Virus record (IMG/VR): IMGVR_UViG_2061766007_000731
Source of the DNA: an uncultured virus (IMG/VR IMGVR_UViG_2061766007_000731)
Lineage: Duplodnaviria; Heunggongvirae; Uroviricota; Caudoviricetes
Reading direction: 5' to 3' (one strand)
DNA length: 7,076 bases
In this document: in pieces, positions 1 through 7,076 of the stretch
How the letters are laid out: the number at the start of each line of letters is the position of its first letter
How positions within the stretch are numbered: position 1 is the stretch's first letter
Translations under genes and position numbers: made by a program
The notes under the pieces: model-generated
What the model saw: the letters and a program-made list of their open reading frames with translations, nothing else
The model's database searches: none
Told to the model about the DNA's origin: nothing

Positions 1-61
1 TAATTTAATTAAATTATTATAGTCACTCCAAACGGCTTTGCTCCGTTGACCCATACATTAA

Positions 62-707
62 CCTACTACTCTATATTACTATAGCCAGTTATTAACTGTT
101 GTAGTCTGGACTATTTCATAACCATATTATTTCTAACTTAGGTTGCAGGTACATAGTCTCTACACATTTACAATATTTCTACTGATTTAGCTCGTCGTTG
201 TCCATTTTTGGAGTTTCGTCGAATTCGCCTGCTTCTACATTCAAAATTTCTTTTGACGCACTCTTAAAATAATTATTAAATGTATGATCTTTAATAAAAA
301 TAATTCCTTTCATTTGGCTATTTTTAGGTATATCTTCTCTGACATAGACACATGTTTTATCTCCAATTTCTTCAATATTAAACATAATACAANNNNNNNN
401 NNNNNNNNNNNNNAAAGCAATAATATCTACTTCATTTTTATATTTGTTTCTTGCTTTATTAGTAGTATGATTTTTACTACTTTCACATCTGCAACATCAT
501 GAATTATTATCTGATTTACAATCAGTATATTTAACTTGAACTTTTTTCAATAAAGATCCATTATCTATAATTAAATCATATCTTGCATTATCTCCAAATG
601 GAAAAGAAACTGTACAACCTCATTTAATAAACTCATAGGCTATTGCAATTTCTCCTAAATTACCTTTTGTTTTAGAATTTATCATATATTTATAATTATT
701 GGTTTAA
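62..707 (-). ncRNA. Group I self-splicing intron in tRNA-Lys (position 34/35), with homing endonuclease ORF starting in the P1 loop
   Basis: Minus strand shows IGS GAGUGC (263-258), P2 UCAAAA-GAAA-UUUUGA (256-241), P3 GCAGG/CCUGC (232-228 / 149-145), P AAUUCGACGAA, Q AACGACGAGC, R GUGUAGAGACUA, S UGAAAUAGUCC, an ACUAC/GUAGU terminal helix and terminal G at 62. The 5' boundary is inferred at the gap edge. Confidence 0.9.
179..685 (-). CDS. Intron-encoded PD-(D/E)XK homing endonuclease (I-Ssp6803I-like), ~168 aa when TGA is read as Trp
   Basis: Manual translation from ATG 685: MINSKTKGNLGEIAIAYEFIK*GCTVSFPFGDNARYDLIIDNGSLLKKVQVKYTD..., with the KG..GE / P.GD..RYDLI / VQVK motifs of group I intron PD-(D/E)XK nucleases. 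It is in frame with the listed ORF 179..385. In-frame TGA at 622-620 and 499-497; ends at TAG 181-179 inside the ribozyme core. Confidence 0.85.
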
Positions 708-750
708 NNNNNNNNNNNNNNNNNNNNNNNNNNNNNNNNNNNNNNNNNNN

Positions 751-935
751 TCTCATTTATTATTATACAATAATAAATTAATAACTTCTCGACATTTGAA
801 TAGAGCGTCAAATTGGTTATTAATTTCAAAATTTTCCTTTTTATATGGTCATAATGCTTCTCCAGATTCTTTGCCATAAATTGCAGCATTTAAATAAGCA
901 AAAGCTGCATACAATTGTCTATCTTTTTCGTTCAT
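751..935 (-). CDS. Small hypothetical phage protein (about 60 aa or more), requires TGA=Trp; 3' end at TGA 755-753 or inside the gap
   Basis: ATG 935 after an A-rich leader: MNEKDRQLYAAFAYLNAAIYGKESGEAL*PYKKENFEINNQFDALFKCREVINLLLYNNK*. The frame stays open for 31 codons after TGA 851-849 in very AT-rich DNA. Confidence 0.6.
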
Positions 936-957
936 TTTTATTTTTTTTTTCAATAAA

Positions 958-1036
958 AATTAACTCCTACAACCTATGTTATACCTAGGAATGCTTCTAC
1001 ATAGGCATCCACGCCACCACCACCTCGGAGTTAATT
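958..1036 (-). other. Intergenic nested stem-loop (terminator-like or small structured RNA)
   Basis: Outer 10-bp inverted repeat AATTAACTCC (958-967) / GGAGTTAATT (1027-1036) and inner 7-bp CCTATGT (973-979) / ACATAGG (999-1005), followed by a T run on the minus strand. Confidence 0.55.
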
Positions 1037-1070
1037 AAATTATATTCATATGTAATTGTGATTACTCGTT

Positions 1071-1625
1071 TTATTCTACAAAAGAATTAGGATGCTTCTT
1101 TCTATCCGTTGCGGAAGTGTTTTTACTACCAACCGTAGCATCTACATATTTTTGAATATCTTCGGCTTTGAATATAGTGGCTGTTATTTGCTTATGAGGA
1201 CACAGCCAGTACTCATCAAGACATTTAGAGCATCCGTTGCAGAGTTCTTTCTTGGCGAGTTCGAGGAGCTCCGCCGCTTGAGCATTCATTACTTCATTCC
1301 ACTTCTTCTCGTCCCATTTTTTTGTTGCAAAGAACTCAAAGTCGTTTTTCAAATAATCTGACAATGCTTGGGCAAGAGGTGTCAACGGCTCATTAGCAAC
1401 GAGAACAAGGTCAAGGTTAGACGGCTTTGCATTGAATTTCCCATCTATATACCATCCCGCAGCATATTCATATCCCTCTTGCACATAAGAGCCGAGGATT
1501 GGCGTACCTTCCTTGTCCTTGTAATCCCAGCGGTAAATTTTTACGGGGTACCCAGATTCAGTAACCACTGTGTACTCGCCCGATTCAATCTGGGGGCGAA
1601 ATTTGATATCAAAAGGAATTTTCAT
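1071..1625 (-). CDS. Hypothetical phage protein (MKIPFDIKFRPQIESGEY...), 184 aa
   Basis: Long ORF ending TAA. ATG 1625 is preferred over 1667 because it lies 1 nt after the upstream stop (1629-1627). The N-terminus resembles small Bacteroidales phage proteins (from memory, not searched). Confidence 0.8.
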   Translation of the reverse strand: MKIPFDIKFRPQIESGEYTVVTESGYPVKIYRWDYKDKEGTPILGSYVQEGYEYAAGWYIDGKFNAKPSNLDLVLVANEPLTPLAQALSDYLKNDFEFFATKKWDEKKWNEVMNAQAAELLELAKKELCNGCSKCLDEYWLCPHKQITATIFKAEDIQKYVDATVGSKNTSATDRKKHPNSFVE

Positions 1626-1626
1626 A

Positions 1627-1851
1627 TTACATAGAATTAAGTTTATTAACAACTTCTTGAAATGCAAGGTCTCTTGTTATTGCATTCTCGTGTGGAACGG
1701 CTCTTGTCTCTTCTATCCACTCCAGCAAAGCGTCCTTGCGGATGTACTCAATATCTTGACTGTTTTTATAACCACATGGGACATTAGTAAATGTATGGGA
1801 AAGGAAGCCAGTGCGTTCATACAATACATAAATTTTATCTGGTGCTATCAT
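1627..1851 (-). CDS. Hypothetical phage protein, 74 aa
   Basis: ORF preceded by AAGGAGG, ATGA overlap with the upstream gene, TAA stop. Confidence 0.8.
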   Translation of the reverse strand: MIAPDKIYVLYERTGFLSHTFTNVPCGYKNSQDIEYIRKDALLEWIEETRAVPHENAITRDLAFQEVVNKLNSM

Positions 1852-2180
1852 TTGTTTTCCTCCTTCAAAAGTGAAATTGCTTTCTCCATCGCAGGGATGG
1901 CATTATCGTTATACCATTTGCGTACAAGAGTATCAATTTCTTTTTTGCTTCTCCCATTAATATAGCCGCTTTCGATAAGAAGTATCGGTTCATACTCTCC
2001 TGCTGGTTCTCTTACATTGTCTATAAAATACAAAGAACATTGTGCCGTATTATCCGGCCAATATCGTGTATAAGCGGTTATCAGGTCAAAATCAAGGTCT
2101 CTTTTCCCGCAGCAGTCATCAGTCCAGACGGCATTTCGCGTAACATCTATTCCGAGATATATCTTATCAGATGCTTTCAT
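1848..2180 (-). CDS. Hypothetical phage protein, 110 aa
   Basis: AGGAGG 7 nt upstream of the ATG. Ends TGA immediately followed by TAG, so it terminates under either genetic code. Confidence 0.8.
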   Translation of the reverse strand: MKASDKIYLGIDVTRNAVWTDDCCGKRDLDFDLITAYTRYWPDNTAQCSLYFIDNVREPAGEYEPILLIESGYINGRSKKEIDTLVRKWYNDNAIPAMEKAISLLKEENK

Positions 2181-2191
2181 TTATTTTCCTC

Positions 2192-2299
2192 CTATTTAAT
2201 TAATGGCAACATTATGAAGTACCATAATATTTGAAAACCCACAAACCCAACAATAAAGGCAAGTGCGTTTCGTAAGGATTGTTTTTCGTTATCTTTCAT
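2192..2299 (-). CDS. Small single-pass membrane protein, 35 aa
   Basis: AAGGAGG then ATG 2299: MKDNEKQSLRNALAFIVGFVGFQILWYFIMLPLIK, TAG stop. Fills the space between neighbouring genes. Confidence 0.65.
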   Translation of the reverse strand: MKDNEKQSLRNALAFIVGFVGFQILWYFIMLPLIK

Positions 2300-2312
2300 T
2301 TGTTTTCCTCCT

Positions 2313-2490
2313 TTAGTGTTTTAACCTACAATGAATACCTAAAACAAATGGAAACTCTAACCAGCAAAGGGGTACAAGTATTAATATGAAAAACAATATC
2401 TTTCCTGCCGAACTTTTGAAATTGTCCCATTCGACACTACCTACCGTAAATAGTAGGCTGAATAGATNNNNNNNNNNNNNNNNNNNNCAT
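2313..2490 (-). CDS. Small hydrophobic protein, N-terminus partly masked
   Basis: Open frame 2465->2313: LFSLLFTVGSVEWDNFKSSAGKILFFILILVPLCWLEFPFVLGIHCRLKH*. ATG 2490 follows GGAGG but is in frame only if the N gap length is inexact. Confidence 0.5.
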
Positions 2491-2493
2491 ACC

Positions 2494-2577
2494 TTATCCC
2501 TCCTTTACGATGATGATGCGAACATTCTGCCCGTCCTTCTCGGCTTTCAGTTTTTCTGCATCAATGTATTTTGCCAT
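2494..2577 (-). CDS. 27-aa mini-ORF, possibly an internally deleted gene remnant
   Basis: MAKYIDAEKLKAEKDGQNVRIIIVKEG*, starting 3 nt after the upstream stop and ending 3 nt before the next ATG. Confidence 0.5.
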   Translation of the reverse strand: MAKYIDAEKLKAEKDGQNVRIIIVKEG

Positions 2578-2580
2578 AAT

Positions 2581-2997
2581 CTAAATCAAATTTTCTAAAC
2601 AATATTTAATAGCAGCTTCACAGGCTTCTTCATAAGTTTGATAGAAGACCTCATCAACGGCATCTTGAAGCATCATTTCAAAATCTGAATCAGTTTTCTG
2701 GATAACCACATAATATCCCGTGTGGCCTCCGCAAGCCCAGGAATCAAGCATTACCTGAATATAATAATGATGTACTTCCCTCAGCCACTTCATAGCCATT
2801 TGAAGAGTTGGAGCGGAATAACATTTATGTGGTTCTATTGTATTATCTAAATCACTATTAGACAATGGGGCAGATAGAGTAGTAAACAAAATGCCAACTG
2901 CTTCTTTTTCTTCATAACAGTGAAAAGAAGCATAATCAAACCCCTTCTCTTTCAGGAGTTTTGCCACTTCAAAGGAAACATAATCTTCTGTAACCAT
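2581..2997 (-). CDS. Hypothetical phage protein, 138 aa
   Basis: ORF MVTEDYVSFEVAKLLKEKGF...APTLQMAMKWLRE...TYEEACEAAIKYCL, tightly packed with neighbours. Resembles a common Bacteroidales phage family of unknown function (from memory). Confidence 0.85.
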   Translation of the reverse strand: MVTEDYVSFEVAKLLKEKGFDYASFHCYEEKEAVGILFTTLSAPLSNSDLDNTIEPHKCYSAPTLQMAMKWLREVHHYYIQVMLDSWACGGHTGYYVVIQKTDSDFEMMLQDAVDEVFYQTYEEACEAAIKYCLENLI

Positions 2998-2999
2998 AG

Positions 3000-3395
3000 T
3001 TATTTAGTTTTATACATTCCTTCAGGTGCATCAAGAGCAAGTCCTTTTTCAATCAAACCTCTAAAATCAAACATATGTTCATTAAGCCAATCATATGTCT
3101 TAATTGTTGGATAATCTTGAATTGATAATGTTTTTGTATAATTATACTCTCTTTTTTCTTCCTCGGTCATACTTGACATTGGACGAAGATATGGTTTGAC
3201 TTCCCCAATTTTAAAAGGTCTGCTGCCACTTTCAGANNNNNNNNNNNNNNNCCACCCATCGAATGTATCTGGGTAAATGTTAGTTATTTTCCAATGCGGA
3301 ACTTCAAATTCATTTTCCTTATAGTCAACGATTACCCCATAAGGTAATCTTGCGCAAAGGTCTTTCAACAGCAATTGTTTTTCTTCTTGTGTCAT
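3000..3395 (-). CDS. Hypothetical phage protein, ~131 aa
   Basis: ORF MTQEEKQLLLKDLCARLPYGV...KPYLRPMSSMTEEE...DFRGLIEKGLALDAPEGMY, in frame across a short gap, TAA stop. Resembles a common Bacteroidales phage family (from memory). Confidence 0.85.
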   Translation of the reverse strand: MTQEEKQLLLKDLCARLPYGVIVDYKENEFEVPHWKITNIYPDTFDGWXXXXXSESGSRPFKIGEVKPYLRPMSSMTEEEKREYNYTKTLSIQDYPTIKTYDWLNEHMFDFRGLIEKGLALDAPEGMYKTK

Positions 3396-3516
3396 ATAGA
3401 TAATATTTTATTTTATTTATACATACAAATAANNNNNNNNNNNNNNNNNNNNNNNNNNNNNNNNNNNNNNNNNNNNNNNNNNNNNNNNNNNNNNNNNNNA
3501 TTATTTAATAATTAAG

Positions 3517-3555
3517 TAGTCTTGCTGGGACTCCAACCCAGAACTTACAGATTAT
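3517..3555 (-). tRNA. 3' half of a tRNA (anticodon N-A-U Ile/Met type, or N-C-U Arg); 5' half not visible
   Basis: Minus strand: ATAA-TCTGT-AAGTT-CTGGG TTGGAGT CCCAG-CAAGACT-A, with correct spacing for tRNA positions 35-73 and a perfect T stem. No matching 5' half in unmasked sequence. Confidence 0.7.
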
Positions 3556-3996
3556 TTAATAGTTCTATACCTATAAAAACGATCACTATTTTTATTTTTA
3601 AATTTGTATGTATCTAATTGACTATCACAATTTGGACAAATACAACGTAAATTATCACGTTTATTATTCGAAGCATGANNNNNNNNNNNNNNNNNNNNAA
3701 ACTAATTTTTGACCATTTCATTCAGGAGATATACCACAAATAGCACACTTATTATCTTGTTCTTTTAGTATATCCTCTTTAAAAATCCTTGGAGAATAAT
3801 TAGCTCTCATTATACTTGGGTCTCCATCAATTATTAATTGATACTTTTGTTTATGTTGAAACTGTTGTTGACATTGTAATGAGCAATATTTTCCATTATG
3901 TTCTGGATATTTTATAAATTCTTTTCCGCAATTAATACATTTAGAAATAGGATAGTTTTTATTAACCTCGATTTTATTATTAAATTTACTATGTTT
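3552..3996 (-). CDS. HNH endonuclease with Cys-rich zinc-binding motifs, start hidden in gap, requires TGA=Trp
   Basis: Manual translation: ...KCINCGKEF...GKYCSLQCQ...KCAICGISPE*NGQKLV[gap]HASNNKRDNLRCICPNCDSQLDTYK...RTIK-TAA. This matches the HNH pattern C..C....WNG..L.L.LDHIDG...NN...NLR..CPNC.SQ. The two visible halves are one nt out of frame across the 20-N gap, probably from inexact gap length. Confidence 0.85.
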
Positions 3997-4538
3997 NNNN
4001 NNNNNNNNNNNNNNNNNNNNNNNNNNNNNNNNNNNNNNNNNNNNNNNNNNNNNNNNNNNNNNNNNNNNNNNNNNNNNNNNNNNNNNNNNNNNNNNNNNNN
4101 NNNNNNNNNNNNNNNNNNNNNNNNNNNNNNNNNNNNNNNNNNNNNNNNNNNNNNNNNNNNNNNNNNNNNNNNNNNNNNNNNNNNNNNNNNNNNNNNNNNN
4201 NNNNNNNNNNNNNNNNNNNNNNNNNNNNNNNNNNNNNNNNNNNNNNNNNNNNNNNNNNNNNNNNNNNNNNNNNNNNNNNNNNNNNNNNNNNNNNNNNNNN
4301 NNNNNNNNNNNNNNNNNNNNNNNNNNNNNNNNNNNNNNNNNNNNNNNNNNNNNNNNNNNNNNNNNNNNNNNNNNNNNNNNNNNNNNNNNNNNNNNNNNNN
4401 NNNNNNNNNNNNNNNNNNNNNNNNNNNNNNNNNNNNNNNNNNNNNNNNNNNNNNNNNNNNNNNNNNNNNNNNNNNNNNNNNNNNNNNNNNNNNNNNNNNN
4501 NNNNNNNNNNNNNNNNNNNNNNNNNNNNNNNNNNNNNN

Positions 4539-4574
4539 TTAAAAAATCTCCAGAAACTATTAAAACTGGAGATT
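4539..4574 (-). terminator. Hairpin plus TTTTAA (terminator-like or tRNA-leader element)
   Basis: 9-bp inverted repeat AATCTCCAG (4545-4553) / CTGGAGATT (4566-4574), followed on the minus strand by TTTTAA. Confidence 0.5.
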
Positions 4575-4675
4575 GGCCCCATCATTAAATAGGAGGTGTA
4601 AGAATCTATCCTATAATAGTTTTTTAAGTCAAATCTTATGAAGTTCTACAATTTGTCTTTGATGCTCATGCATCG

Positions 4676-5362
4676 TAGCTCAGGCCGGACTCGAACCGGC
4701 ACGGTCATTACTGACCAACGGATTTTCTTACCACTATAGTTTTCACTACCAAATTTTACAACCTTTTGACGTGTCACTATTGAAAGTGAATGCCTATTCT
4801 AAGGCTAGACTCGAACTAGCAACATAACCTTGCACGTTATTCCGTTTTAACTAAATTTGTTTGTGGTCTGGACTCTATCTTAACCATATTGAAATCTTGC
4901 AAGAACTATTGTTTTATGTCCATCTTTCAGGTTTAGTACAATAGCAAATTTATTTCAACTTAGGCCCCTCCTGTATAGTCTCTACACACGCCTGTTAGCC
5001 TTCTACCACTCTAAAAGATAGGGCTTCTAGTATGCTAACTGCTTGGCTCGGTATTAGCATATAAAGTCCGTGTTCTTCTCTCTCCTAAACCATCGTTGGC
5101 TATCTTCACAGAAATTCCATTAATAGGAGTATAGGACTTGTCCTTTAAGCTTTAACAAGTTAATTTACACAATTATCCGTATCGTATGCCTTATATTACT
5201 ATAAGTAACGCTGCGCGACCTGTAAAACTTTACTTAGCTTTCACCGAATTAGGGAGGTTCTGCATCTGGAGTTTCCCCCAGTGCACTCAAATTTATAACT
5301 TACTGTCTATCAACAAGTTAAAGACAAAAGTCCGTAGTGTCTACCTATTCCACCACTGAGCC
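4676..5362 (-). tRNA. trnL: tRNA-Leu(UAA) split by a group I intron; exon 1 5362-5328, exon 2 4726-4676
   Basis: Joined exons give GGCTCAGTGGTGGAATAGGTAGACACTACGGACTT|AAAATCCGTTGGTCAGTAATGACCGTGCCGGTTCGAGTCCGGCCTGAGCTA: acceptor GGCTCAG/CTGAGCT, anticodon stem ACGGA/TCCGT, loop CT-TAA-AA, long variable arm GGTCA/TGACC, T arm GCCGG-TTCGAGT-CCGGC, discriminator A. Confidence 0.95.
4727..5327 (-). ncRNA. Group I self-splicing intron (601 nt, no ORF) between U34 and A35 of tRNA-Leu(UAA)
   Basis: P1 exon ACUU pairs with IGS GAGU (5288-5285) including the U.G splice-site pair. P2 CUGGGG-GAAA-CUCCAG (5281-5266), P3 CCUCC/GGAGG (5257-5253 / 4971-4967), P4 UUCGGU/ACCGAG, R GUGUAGAGACUA, S AAGAUAGAGUCC, ACCAC/GUGGU helix, terminal G at 4727. 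Confidence 0.95.
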
Positions 5363-5404
5363 TTAAAAATCTACTTCCAAACCTTCACAGGACCCTAAGT
5401 AGAT
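5363..5404 (-). terminator. Hairpin plus TTTTAA directly before tRNA-Leu
   Basis: 8-bp inverted repeat ATCTACTT (5369-5376) / AAGTAGAT (5397-5404), then TTTTAA, then G1 of the tRNA. Confidence 0.45.
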
Positions 5405-5438
5405 GAAGAGTTTTAGAGATATGAGTAGCAAAATCATA

Positions 5439-5645
5439 TCAAGCTTTTGCTCCTACATCAAGAATAAGTTCTTTCGCGTTTTGTTTAATTTCAGGTTCAA
5501 TATATTCTTTAATAAACTCTGCAGAAATGGCATCCATCCAATTAGATATCATAATGCCTTCAAGTTTACCAGAAGTTGTTTTAAAATTTTCAGGATTTTT
5601 AAAAAAATTACGAATTTTCGTAATAGATTCTAACAAATCATTCAT
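5439..5645 (-). CDS. Hypothetical protein, 68 aa or more (3' end uncertain because it ends at TGA)
   Basis: ORF MNDLLESITKIRN...LDVGAKA overlapping the upstream gene end. With TGA=Trp it would continue WYDFATHISKTLHLL... Confidence 0.6.
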   Translation of the reverse strand: MNDLLESITKIRNFFKNPENFKTTSGKLEGIMISNWMDAISAEFIKEYIEPEIKQNAKELILDVGAKA

Positions 5646-5927
5646 AATCTACTGGGATTACTTTATAATACCAATCAACCACTTCTCCATCAACTCGTTT
5701 TTCAACAAGTTCTACATCACCTACAATATAATGATCTATGGCATCGGATTGCACATTTCGCTTATTTCTGTTAAATAGAAAAATCGCACATCCGATAAGA
5801 ATGATAGATACAATAAGGCAAGGAATTGTAAATTTAGATTTTATGACTTCCTTAAAACTATAAGTAATAGATAAGTCAATAAAAGACCAAATAATAATAG
5901 TAGCGACAATTACTGCCATTAAAGCAA
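5638..5927 (-). CDS. Hypothetical membrane protein with two hydrophobic segments; start probably in gap 5928-5968
   Basis: ALMAVIVATIIIWSFIDLSITY...FTIPCLIVSIILIGCAIFLFNRNKR...YYKVIPVDYE. Ends at TGA 5640-5638, or at a TAA 10 codons later under code 4. Confidence 0.7.
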
Positions 5928-5968
5928 NNNNNNNNNNNNNNNNNNNNNNNNNNNNNNNNNNNNNNNNN

Positions 5969-6148
5969 TAATAATTGATTTTCGGTAAATCACTTACAAA
6001 TACGATGTGTTGAAGGAATGCTGTTAGATACCCAGACATGAAGACGAACTTTAGGATAAATTGCTTTACCGTCCTTGTTCTCCGGAACAACGTTGGAACA
6101 TTTGTCAATAAACCTTACAAAAATTCCTCTAAAATTTTTCTTATTCAT
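5969..6148 (-). CDS. Small hypothetical protein; 52 aa in standard code, or continuing into the gap if TGA=Trp
   Basis: ATG 6148 overlaps the upstream stop (GATGAATAA): MNKKNFRGIFVRFIDKCSNVVPENKDGKAIYPKVRLHVWVSNSIPSTHRICK*FTENQLL, TGA at 5992-5990. Confidence 0.6.
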
Positions 6149-6431
6149 CGATTTTATTTATTAAATTAATTAAATTTTTCTTAAGACGGGGTCTTGAATT
6201 AACAAAATCTTTAAATTGCCCATCATCATAAACCCTTCCATCATCATAACCGTTTAAATCTTTAACTAATTCAAGATTATATTTGTTAATTATTTTAGTT
6301 GCTATTTTATCGTCTAGATCAGTGATAGTAATTCCTTTACCGTTATTACTGATTTTAATATGGCAATATTTATATTTATTAACCGCTTCAGTTNNNNNNN
6401 NNNNNNNNNNNNNNNNNNNNNNNNNNNNNAT
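6141..6431 (-). CDS. Hypothetical protein, ~96 aa, missed by the ORF track because the start is masked
   Basis: Open frame 6392->6141: TEAVNKYKYCHIKISNNGKGITITDLDDKIATKIINKYNLELVKDLNGYDDGRVYDDGQFKDFVNSRPRLKKNLINLINKIDE-TAA. An in-frame ATN at 6431-6429 follows AAGGGA. Confidence 0.7.
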   Translation of the reverse strand, partial: XXXXXXXXXXXXXTEAVNKYKYCHIKISNNGKGITITDLDDKIATKIINKYNLELVKDLNGYDDGRVYDDGQFKDFVNSRPRLKKNLINLINKIDE

Positions 6432-6467
6432 TTAATCCCTTGTTTATTTTATAAATTTTTAAATATG

Positions 6468-6545
6468 TGGGAATGATCTGAATCGAACAGATGAAAATGC
6501 CCATCTTGTAAGGATGGCGGCTTAAACCAACTGGCCCACATTCCC
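6468..6545 (-). tRNA. trnV: tRNA-Val(UAC), uninterrupted
   Basis: GGGAATG/CATTCCC acceptor, D loop AGTTGGTTTAA, anticodon arm CCATC-CTTACAA-GATGG, T arm ATCTG-TTCGATT-CAGAT, discriminator A, 8-nt variable region. Confidence 0.92.
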
Positions 6546-6551
6546 ATAAAT

Positions 6552-7076
6552 TTGCAGAAACGATTAAACTGCAATGGACTCTTGCGTTACTATTATTCCA
6601 AAATTTAAATAACGTTTGATAATCCTTTTTTAGACAAAATTTGGATTTTTGTTCTAATCGAGTTTTTAAATATAAAATATAACATTTGACATCAAGTTCC
6701 TCGTAACTCACTGTTATATGAAATAATTATTAGAGGTTTGCTTTCATCTTGCTATACTTGATACGTCAAAATATCAAAAGTTATAGTAATTCAAATAGCA
6801 AGTTTCTTGAAAAATTAGCCCTTATTTCACTTCAATATAATTCGCCAATCATATTAAAGAACACTAATCTTCCTCAAATGCCCAATTCTTATCCTAAACT
6901 ACATTCGGATCCAGCTAAATTGAGTTAGCTCCTTTATTAACTCATTCGCATTAATAAAAGTTGTAATTTAATTTTTCTGGTTTCGCCGTTAACTATGTCT
7001 AGACTTATGGATTCAACAAAATAGTTTACTTTTTGCTAGATAGGATGTTATCCAGATATACCGTGTAATTAAGAAC
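6552..7076 (-). ncRNA. Candidate large structured non-coding RNA, probably extending beyond the window
   Basis: No credible ORF found. Dense inverted repeats at 6552-6557/6569-6574, 6621-6625/6643-6647, 6677-6684/6712-6719, 6748-6755/6795-6802 (inner 6758-6763/6772-6777), 6913-6918/6925-6930, 6933-6940/6951-6958, and long-range 6891-6896/7041-7046. Strand assumed from neighbours. Confidence 0.45.

Follow-up and report, generated by a model that had tools for sequence, protein, structure and literature searches.

The subject of this analysis is the use of TGA as a tryptophan (Trp) codon in an uncultured Caudoviricetes virus (IMG/VR record IMGVR_UViG_2061766007_000731), where it occurs in two homing endonuclease genes, one of the PD-(D/E)XK and one of the HNH type, and in a small open reading frame (ORF), the 935 ORF. 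The whole stretch of DNA analyzed, hereafter the window, is 7,076 nt long; nine stretches (805 bases) are N-masked, leaving 6271 bases visible, and every recognizable gene lies on the minus strand. We consider it likely that the window is a region of a large phage that is rich in transfer RNA (tRNA) genes and mostly compatible with the standard code, and that this phage reads TGA as Trp once its own opal-suppressor tRNA is active. Recoding here is probably partial and time-dependent, not a fixed code. The TGAs lie on Trp columns and are kept in diverged gene copies under purifying selection; the relatives in which they occur are recoded throughout the genome and carry a tRNA(UCA). All in-frame TGAs listed in an earlier note on this DNA were found on the minus strand in the frames and at the coordinates used below (including 5640-5638 and 5441-5439). 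As the same note had claimed, in-frame TAA and TAG are absent (0 of each) from what is visible of the two nuclease genes and the 935 ORF.

Both Trp codons of the PD-(D/E)XK ORF (685..179) are TGA (622-620 and 499-497). It has no other Trp codons and stops at a TAG (181-179). The protein matches Pfam PDDEXK_5 (E 4.1e-26, 92.1 bits versus a cut-off of 26.1), with residues 2-136 on profile positions 1-137 of 138, a match that spans both TGAs. A profile of the protein and its homologues also matches PDB chain 2OST_A (E 2.1e-10), with the GD..YDL..QVK catalytic motif aligned; PDB 2OST is I-Ssp6803I. The protein is placed among the PDDEXK_5, I-Ssp6803I-like nucleases by a full-length profile match above the curated cut-off together with the catalytic motif. 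For the column check, 18 of 35 database matches were aligned, and each of the two TGA sites is W in 13/18 homologues, the remainder being Y, F or M. A copy of the gene in IMG/VR (L010, 70% identity by tblastn) has TGA at the identical two codons, and the ratio of nonsynonymous to synonymous substitution rates (dN/dS) between it and the window is 0.24 over 159 codons. The remaining, more distant IMG/VR matches reach at most 51% identity to the window protein over partial matches. The 36 loci of such relatives that were translated have no in-frame TGA inside the ORF, and are therefore uninformative on recoding. Within the PD-(D/E)XK ORF the masked stretch has the length of 8 residues that is expected, and thus the masks seem to be length-preserving.

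The HNH gene is visible in two parts. The N-terminal part (3996-3700) has a TGA at 3720-3718 in the position of the W of WNG, and the part with the HNH motif (3677-3555) follows in a different frame and stops at a TAA (3554-3552). PHROG HNH families match the two visible parts with E-values of 4.2e-9 and 2.5e-8. The earlier note stated that this HNH subfamily typically has WNG before the HNH motif, and the site at 3720-3718 is indeed a conserved Trp (WNG/WNN) in 11/11 relatives read from DNA, spelled TGG in seven and TGA in four (L062-L065). Between the window and L062, dN/dS is 0.24 for the N-terminal part (97 codons) and 0.11 for the HNH motif part (40 codons).

The 935 ORF had no family match in protein family searches. 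Its TGA at 851-849 aligns with a TGG Trp codon of its sole homologue, an 88-residue ORF of the related genome G002, and a second TGA (755-753) ends the visible ORF before a mask, where the homologue ends. Thus 4/4 testable sites in the nucleases and the 935 ORF fall on Trp columns of homologues, which bears out the proposal that TGA encodes Trp in these three ORFs. Together they have 4 TGA and 0 TGG at Trp columns, and the ten ordinary ORFs of the window have 0 in-frame TGA and 19 TGG (exact test on the 2x2 table, 1 in 8855). The ordinary ORFs at 1071..3395 contribute 15 TGG and 0 in-frame TGA. The AT-rich ordinary ORFs at 5439..6392 (GC content 0.25-0.35) contribute 4 TGG and 0 in-frame TGA, and 3/4 of them end at TGA. 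The nuclease ORFs have a GC content of 0.24-0.26; the TGA/TGG split does not track base composition. The suggestion that recoding is a trait of the AT-rich genes, or that plain code 4 applies, is not supported by the AT-rich ORFs at 5439..6392, which use TGG and of which three end at TGA.

TGA is used as Trp in 3/13 ORFs of the window and is an apparent stop in four others. ORF 2180-1848 ends in TGA-TAG with an ATGA overlap with the next start. ORF 5925-5638 ends at the TGA at 5640-5638 in a ATGAATGA overlap, with a TAA 10 codons later. The caution in the earlier note that this TGA and the one at 5441-5439 could be real stops was correct. For the 6148 ORF it had listed a possible Trp at 5992-5990; the TGA is present in frame, but it aligns with a Gly that stands six residues before the homologue ends, and from this alignment it is most likely a real stop.

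Six whole IMG/VR records behind the related loci were compared using greedy ORF maps under different codes.

Table 1. Whole IMG/VR records compared with the window, with coding density under codes 11 and 4.
Record	Size	Relation to the window	Density, code 11	Density, code 4	tRNA(UCA)	Nuclease ORFs with TGA
G002	166.9 kb, terminal repeats	Holds TGA-bearing PD-(D/E)XK copy	0.724	0.931	Yes	Yes
G001	140.7 kb	Holds TGA-bearing HNH copy	0.822	0.930	Yes	Yes
G006	363 kb	Backbone relative	0.927	0.921	No	None
G008	96 kb	TGG-spelled HNH relative	0.911	0.917	No	None
G010	88 kb	TGG-spelled HNH relative	0.849	0.850	No	None
G011	167 kb	TGG-spelled HNH relative	0.902	0.912	No	None

TGA-bearing nucleases occur in 2/2 recoded genomes and 0/4 standard-code genomes, a small sample. 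G002 has 403 in-frame TGA versus 336 TGG in 172 ORFs, and G001 has 169 versus 432. In aligned protein pairs of G002 and G001, W or TGA stands opposite TGA in 28/77 and 16/40 cases, against a background of W below 1%. Code 25 (TGA as Gly), Ser and Sec were tried as other meanings of TGA and rejected; the residue opposite TGA is Gly in 1/77 and 2/40 cases and Ser in 4 and 1. Amber recoding was likewise rejected, as the density under code 15 is only 0.779 (G002) and 0.840 (G001), though both genomes carry a tRNA(CUA). The tRNA(UCA) genes are at 59870-59962 in G002 and 29413-29503 in G001 (loci L078 and L086), are 91-93 bases long, have a Trp-like body apart from a long variable arm, and are called tRNA-SeC by ARAGORN. 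In the G002 tRNA, the A1-U72 pair, the base G73 and the anticodon arm GGUCU-UCA-AAACC resemble those of bacterial tRNA-Trp.

The recoded genomes are not uniform in their use of TGA. The PD-(D/E)XK nuclease of G002 is in a low-TGA block at 30-60 kb, where 34/47 ORFs have no TGA and 7/47 have a TGA within 12 codons of their end. The tRNA region of G001 contains five HNH ORFs with 2-3 TGA each. G002 also has an adjacent pair of homologues of ORFs 3395-3000 (50% identity) and 2997-2581 (38% identity). In the window itself, a coding density of 0.75 rises to 0.80 with code 4, to 0.89 with code 15 and to 0.85 if TAA is read through. These values do not discriminate between codes because the stretch is short (7 kb) and is in the early region; density is decisive only in the whole genomes of the relatives, and at the 10-20 kb scale it is also non-discriminating.

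The favored reading would work as follows. The ordinary genes avoid in-frame TGA and some stop at it, so that they could be translated by unmodified host machinery. The intron-borne PD-(D/E)XK gene, the free-standing HNH gene and the one small ORF spell every Trp as TGA. Before the suppressor acts, ribosomes would halt at codon 22 of the PD-(D/E)XK ORF, and with all nuclease Trp codons being TGA, full-length nuclease would be made only after suppression is on. We infer that this phage itself encodes an opal suppressor and that the arrangement delays nuclease production. The arrangement may be a selected timing lock or, just as well, a side effect of AT drift in genes needed only late.

Several observations weigh against this reading. 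The visible 6271 bases contain no tRNA(UCA), release factor or tryptophanyl-tRNA synthetase, and the tRNA(UCA) of G001 and G002 have a long variable arm (about 22 bases in G002), which is unusual for a Trp tRNA. In the closest PD-(D/E)XK homologues the W calls may stem from code-4 gene callers reading TGA. Four of the ten ordinary ORFs end at TGA, compared with 9-26% TGA stops in the standard-code relatives counted; the rarity of TGA as a true stop, a trait of TGA-recoded phages in the sense of Borges et al., is not seen in the window. Read-through of the TGA at 5441-5439 would extend ORF 5645-5439 by 44 codons across a tRNA gene. The closest whole-genome relative of ORF 2997-2581 is in the standard-code G006 (61% amino acid identity; 86% nucleotide identity over 240 bases), which has no suppressor. 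G006 has 12 tblastn matches to this ORF and at least seven to ORF 3395-3000 (loci L093-L111), clustered near both ends of the record, and because this is a multi-copy family with 12 matches the orthology of ORF 2997-2581 with the G006 gene is unsure. The N-terminal end of the 935 ORF is about 27 residues shorter than that of its homologue. The HNH gene does not form one continuous ORF with the HNH motif in the window, as it does in relatives; the frame change falls inside the mask at 3679-3698, and 22 bases (3678-3699) separate the last visible codon of the N-terminal part from the first of the motif part, versus 24 in most relatives. A genuine frameshift, a fault of the assembly or a feature concealed by the mask could each account for the change, and the HNH ORF or the 935 ORF could be a decaying copy.

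Many of these points would also fit a standard-code phage in which the nucleases and the intron are immigrants from TGA-recoded phages, acquired via homing or recombination at co-infection. The nuclease genes would be untranslatable, silent or decaying, and the intron would still splice and leave a working tRNA. We regard this as an unlikely account. In the standard-code G006, tRNA genes contain introns of the same family, the ordinary ORFs of the window show 0 TGA against 19 TGG with 4/10 stopping at TGA, and the HNH frame change, the shortened 935 ORF and the lack of a visible suppressor tRNA are in keeping with it. However, none of the four standard-code genomes has a TGA-bearing nuclease ORF, whereas the window has three separate ORFs in 4 kb with TGA on Trp columns, and apart from its TGAs the PD-(D/E)XK ORF is undamaged and retains the catalytic motif. 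Moreover, the standard appearance of the window is matched in the recoded G002, which likewise looks standard at 30-60 kb. In a variant that we find quite improbable, the phage of the window would use the standard code, like the 363-kb relative, and carry opal-coded homing endonucleases that it is unable to translate on its own and that are active only when a co-infecting TGA-recoded phage supplies the suppressor tRNA. If this were true, the genetic code would be a key that lets selfish elements cross between phage lineages of different codes, silent and harmless in between.

Read-through might also occur with no suppressor at all. UGA is the leakiest stop codon, and host tRNA-Trp misreading it at a low rate would yield toxic nucleases at a trace level; the TGAs are exactly on Trp codons, where near-cognate read-through restores the residue. 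The relatives with the same TGAs, however, encode tRNA(UCA) and use hundreds of TGAs in large essential-looking ORFs, for which trace read-through would be insufficient, and such leaky attenuation is very improbable. A uniform code 4, in which phage and host always read TGA as Trp as in Mycoplasma, appears extremely doubtful. It would explain the TGAs on Trp columns in an AT-rich window (GC 0.33), but not ten ordinary ORFs, the AT-rich ones included, with 19 TGG and 0 TGA. TGA stands at four gene ends, which is not expected of NCBI table 4 as a fixed organism-wide code; among these are the ATGA and ATGAATGA start-stop overlaps, read-through at 5441-5439 crosses a tRNA gene, and TGG is still common in the recoded relatives (336 and 432). 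Barely credible is the case that the earlier note had set against its own proposal, that of ordinary pseudogenes with random nonsense mutations in dead nucleases of a standard-code phage. A change from TGG to TGA is a single transition favored by AT pressure, and the HNH frame change could be taken as decay. Yet 4/4 testable TGAs are on Trp columns, whereas in the TGA-bearing ORFs a single base change that creates a stop starts from a Trp codon in only 3-5% of the possible routes; there is no in-frame TAA or TAG, and the same TGAs are found in copies that are 25-37% diverged in protein. The TGAs are conserved on Trp columns, dN/dS is 0.11-0.24, indicating purifying selection, and few routes lead through Trp; random nonsense mutation is therefore excluded for practical purposes.

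The window is a phage tRNA-array region crowded with mobile elements (Table 2).

Table 2. Features of the window, listed from its high-numbered end.
Feature	Position	Strand	Basis or remark
Stretch without ORFs	7076-6546		530 bases, upstream of tRNA-Val
tRNA-Val(UAC)	6545-6467	-	Sole uninterrupted tRNA visible
Four small AT-rich ordinary ORFs (6392-6144, 6148-5990, 5925-5638, 5645-5439)	5439..6392	-	
Split tRNA gene, long variable arm, 599-base intron	4675..5362	-	ARAGORN, introns allowed
Terminator-like hairpin	about 4600-4540		
542-base mask	3997-4538		Conceals start of HNH gene
HNH homing endonuclease ORF, visible part	3552..3996	-	PHROG HNH families
Six ordinary phage ORFs (1667-1071, 1851-1627, 2180-1848, 2299-2192, 2997-2581, 3395-3000)	1071..3395	-	GC 0.31-0.41
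935 ORF, small, 60 visible codons	756..935	-	G002 homologue
Probable split tRNA gene, group-I-like intron carrying PD-(D/E)XK ORF	23..750	-	3' exon read; analogy with L010/G002
PD-(D/E)XK (PDDEXK_5, I-Ssp6803I-like) homing endonuclease ORF, 168 codons	179..685	-	Pfam

The PD-(D/E)XK ORF is probably carried by an intron that splits a tRNA gene. The 3' exon can be read from the sequence at about 61-23, and a core alignment places conserved core blocks of the intron at about 166-152 and 118-104. The masked 708-750 would contain the 5' exon, and the anticodon would, by analogy, be GUU or UUU. At the homologous locus in L010/G002, ARAGORN calls a complete tRNA with a 641-base intron and the nuclease ORF inside. 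The last ~28 codons of the PD-(D/E)XK ORF (179-262 on the minus strand, from about ...FKSASKEILNVEAGEFDETP...) overlap a conserved core block of the ORF-less introns, and L010 10430-10560 does likewise. The C-terminal tail is conserved in the closest PD-(D/E)XK homologues only, because it overlaps the intron RNA core. A database protein homologous to the nuclease (P0002) reads on into the next intron core block.

The tRNA gene at 4675..5362 is split in the anticodon loop by its 599-base intron, which has no ORF. With a loop of 7 bases the gene reads as tRNA-Leu(UAA); the ARAGORN label "tRNA-Stop (tta)" arises because a 9-base loop is allowed. Long invariant blocks of this intron are common to introns in G006 tRNA genes (Arg, Ser and Gln) and in a Leu tRNA gene of G002. 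The five ORF-less copies (in Leu, Arg, Ser, Gln and Leu tRNA genes) have these blocks in common and all end in G. Typical group I traits are found, namely insertion in the anticodon loop, a U ahead of the 5' splice site, a final G in the intron and shared core blocks. The Rfam group I intron model had no match in the window (E up to 1) or in L010 (E up to 0.1), and it detects none of the introns of this family in the window, G006 and G002; Rfam also gave no tRNA match in the window. The invariant blocks may resemble the core of the Azoarcus tRNA-Ile intron.

Right after the HNH stop, at 3518-3551 on the minus strand, there is an apparent 3' part of a tRNA alone, consisting of the T arm and the 3' acceptor strand; a 67-base mask comes next. 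In relatives a complete tRNA-Arg(UCU) follows the HNH gene; no matching 5' half was found upstream of the partial tRNA in the window. Between ORF 1667-1071 and the 935 ORF (955-1045, minus strand) is a stretch of about 75 bases with an 8-base-pair closing stem (TTAACTCC ... GGAGTTAA). The motif ATAATTTAATTAA stands just before it, at about 1046-1034, and is repeated at the window start (about 18-6). The stretch at 6546-7076 has no ORF of at least 60 codons on the minus strand under any code tried and no similarity to G001, G002 or G006; it may be a non-coding RNA or a regulatory region.

Homologues of the ORFs at 1071..3395 were found in phage records, with the best relatives of ORF 1667-1071 reaching at most 53% identity. 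A BLASTN of 1060-3400 against GenBank phages gave no match, and one of 4540-7076 gave only tRNA-like matches of about 70 bases. In IMG/VR and the JGI metagenomes, no exact match to a 44-base sequence of the window turned up. The only GenBank phage match to a backbone protein was to the crAss-like phage cr106_1 (33% identity).

For annotation, the consequence is twofold. A standard-code gene caller splits and misses both nucleases, and a plain code-4 run would wrongly extend four neighboring genes; mixed-code handling is needed. The window is a further independent example of selfish endonuclease genes that lie among the early genes of recoded phages and use the late code. The pattern fits the published idea of recoding as a timer of gene expression and opens no new question.

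The gene of I-Ssp6803I is in a group I intron of tRNA-fMet. The nuclease of the window shares the Pfam family of this enzyme (PDDEXK_5) and aligns with it at the catalytic motif; unlike that of I-Ssp6803I, its gene appears to reside in a tRNA intron of a phage, uses TGA for Trp and overlaps the intron RNA core at its 3' end. I-Ssp6803I is a PD-(D/E)XK homing endonuclease according to a review (PMC3384342). The organisms of NCBI translation table 4 (Mycoplasma, Spiroplasma) also read TGA as Trp, whereas the window uses it so in 3/13 ORFs and apparently as a stop in four others.

Recoding of opal to Trp in gut phages, invoked in the earlier note, is in print (Borges et al., bioRxiv 10.1101/2021.08.26.457843; PMC12386605). 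In Lera, a Zeta crAss-like phage, TGA is read as Trp; the phage has 26 tRNA genes including tRNA-SUP-TCA and tRNA-SUP-CTA, and is described as having five ORFs for homing endonucleases and, in a forward block, tRNA and nucleic-acid genes (PMC12386605). By this published description, G002 and G001 resemble Lera in carrying both suppressor tRNAs. The Agate phages of gut and rumen, as described by Borges et al., read TGA as Trp with predicted hosts following the standard code, their replication genes are largely TGA-free, and a suppressor tRNA with the anticodon UCA is reported in only a minority of recoded phages. In the same account, a group I intron endonuclease in an early gene of an Agate phage prefers TGA over TGG, and the authors propose that TGA use withholds the endonuclease until late infection (bioRxiv 10.1101/2021.08.26.457843). 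The principle is thus already in print; what the window contributes is two more nuclease families and tRNA introns as carriers. As in Agate, an intron-borne homing endonuclease among early genes uses TGA for Trp. The carrier in the window appears to be a tRNA gene, not a protein-coding gene, and its nucleases are a PD-(D/E)XK enzyme and a free-standing HNH enzyme, whereas the published passage on Agate names no nuclease family.

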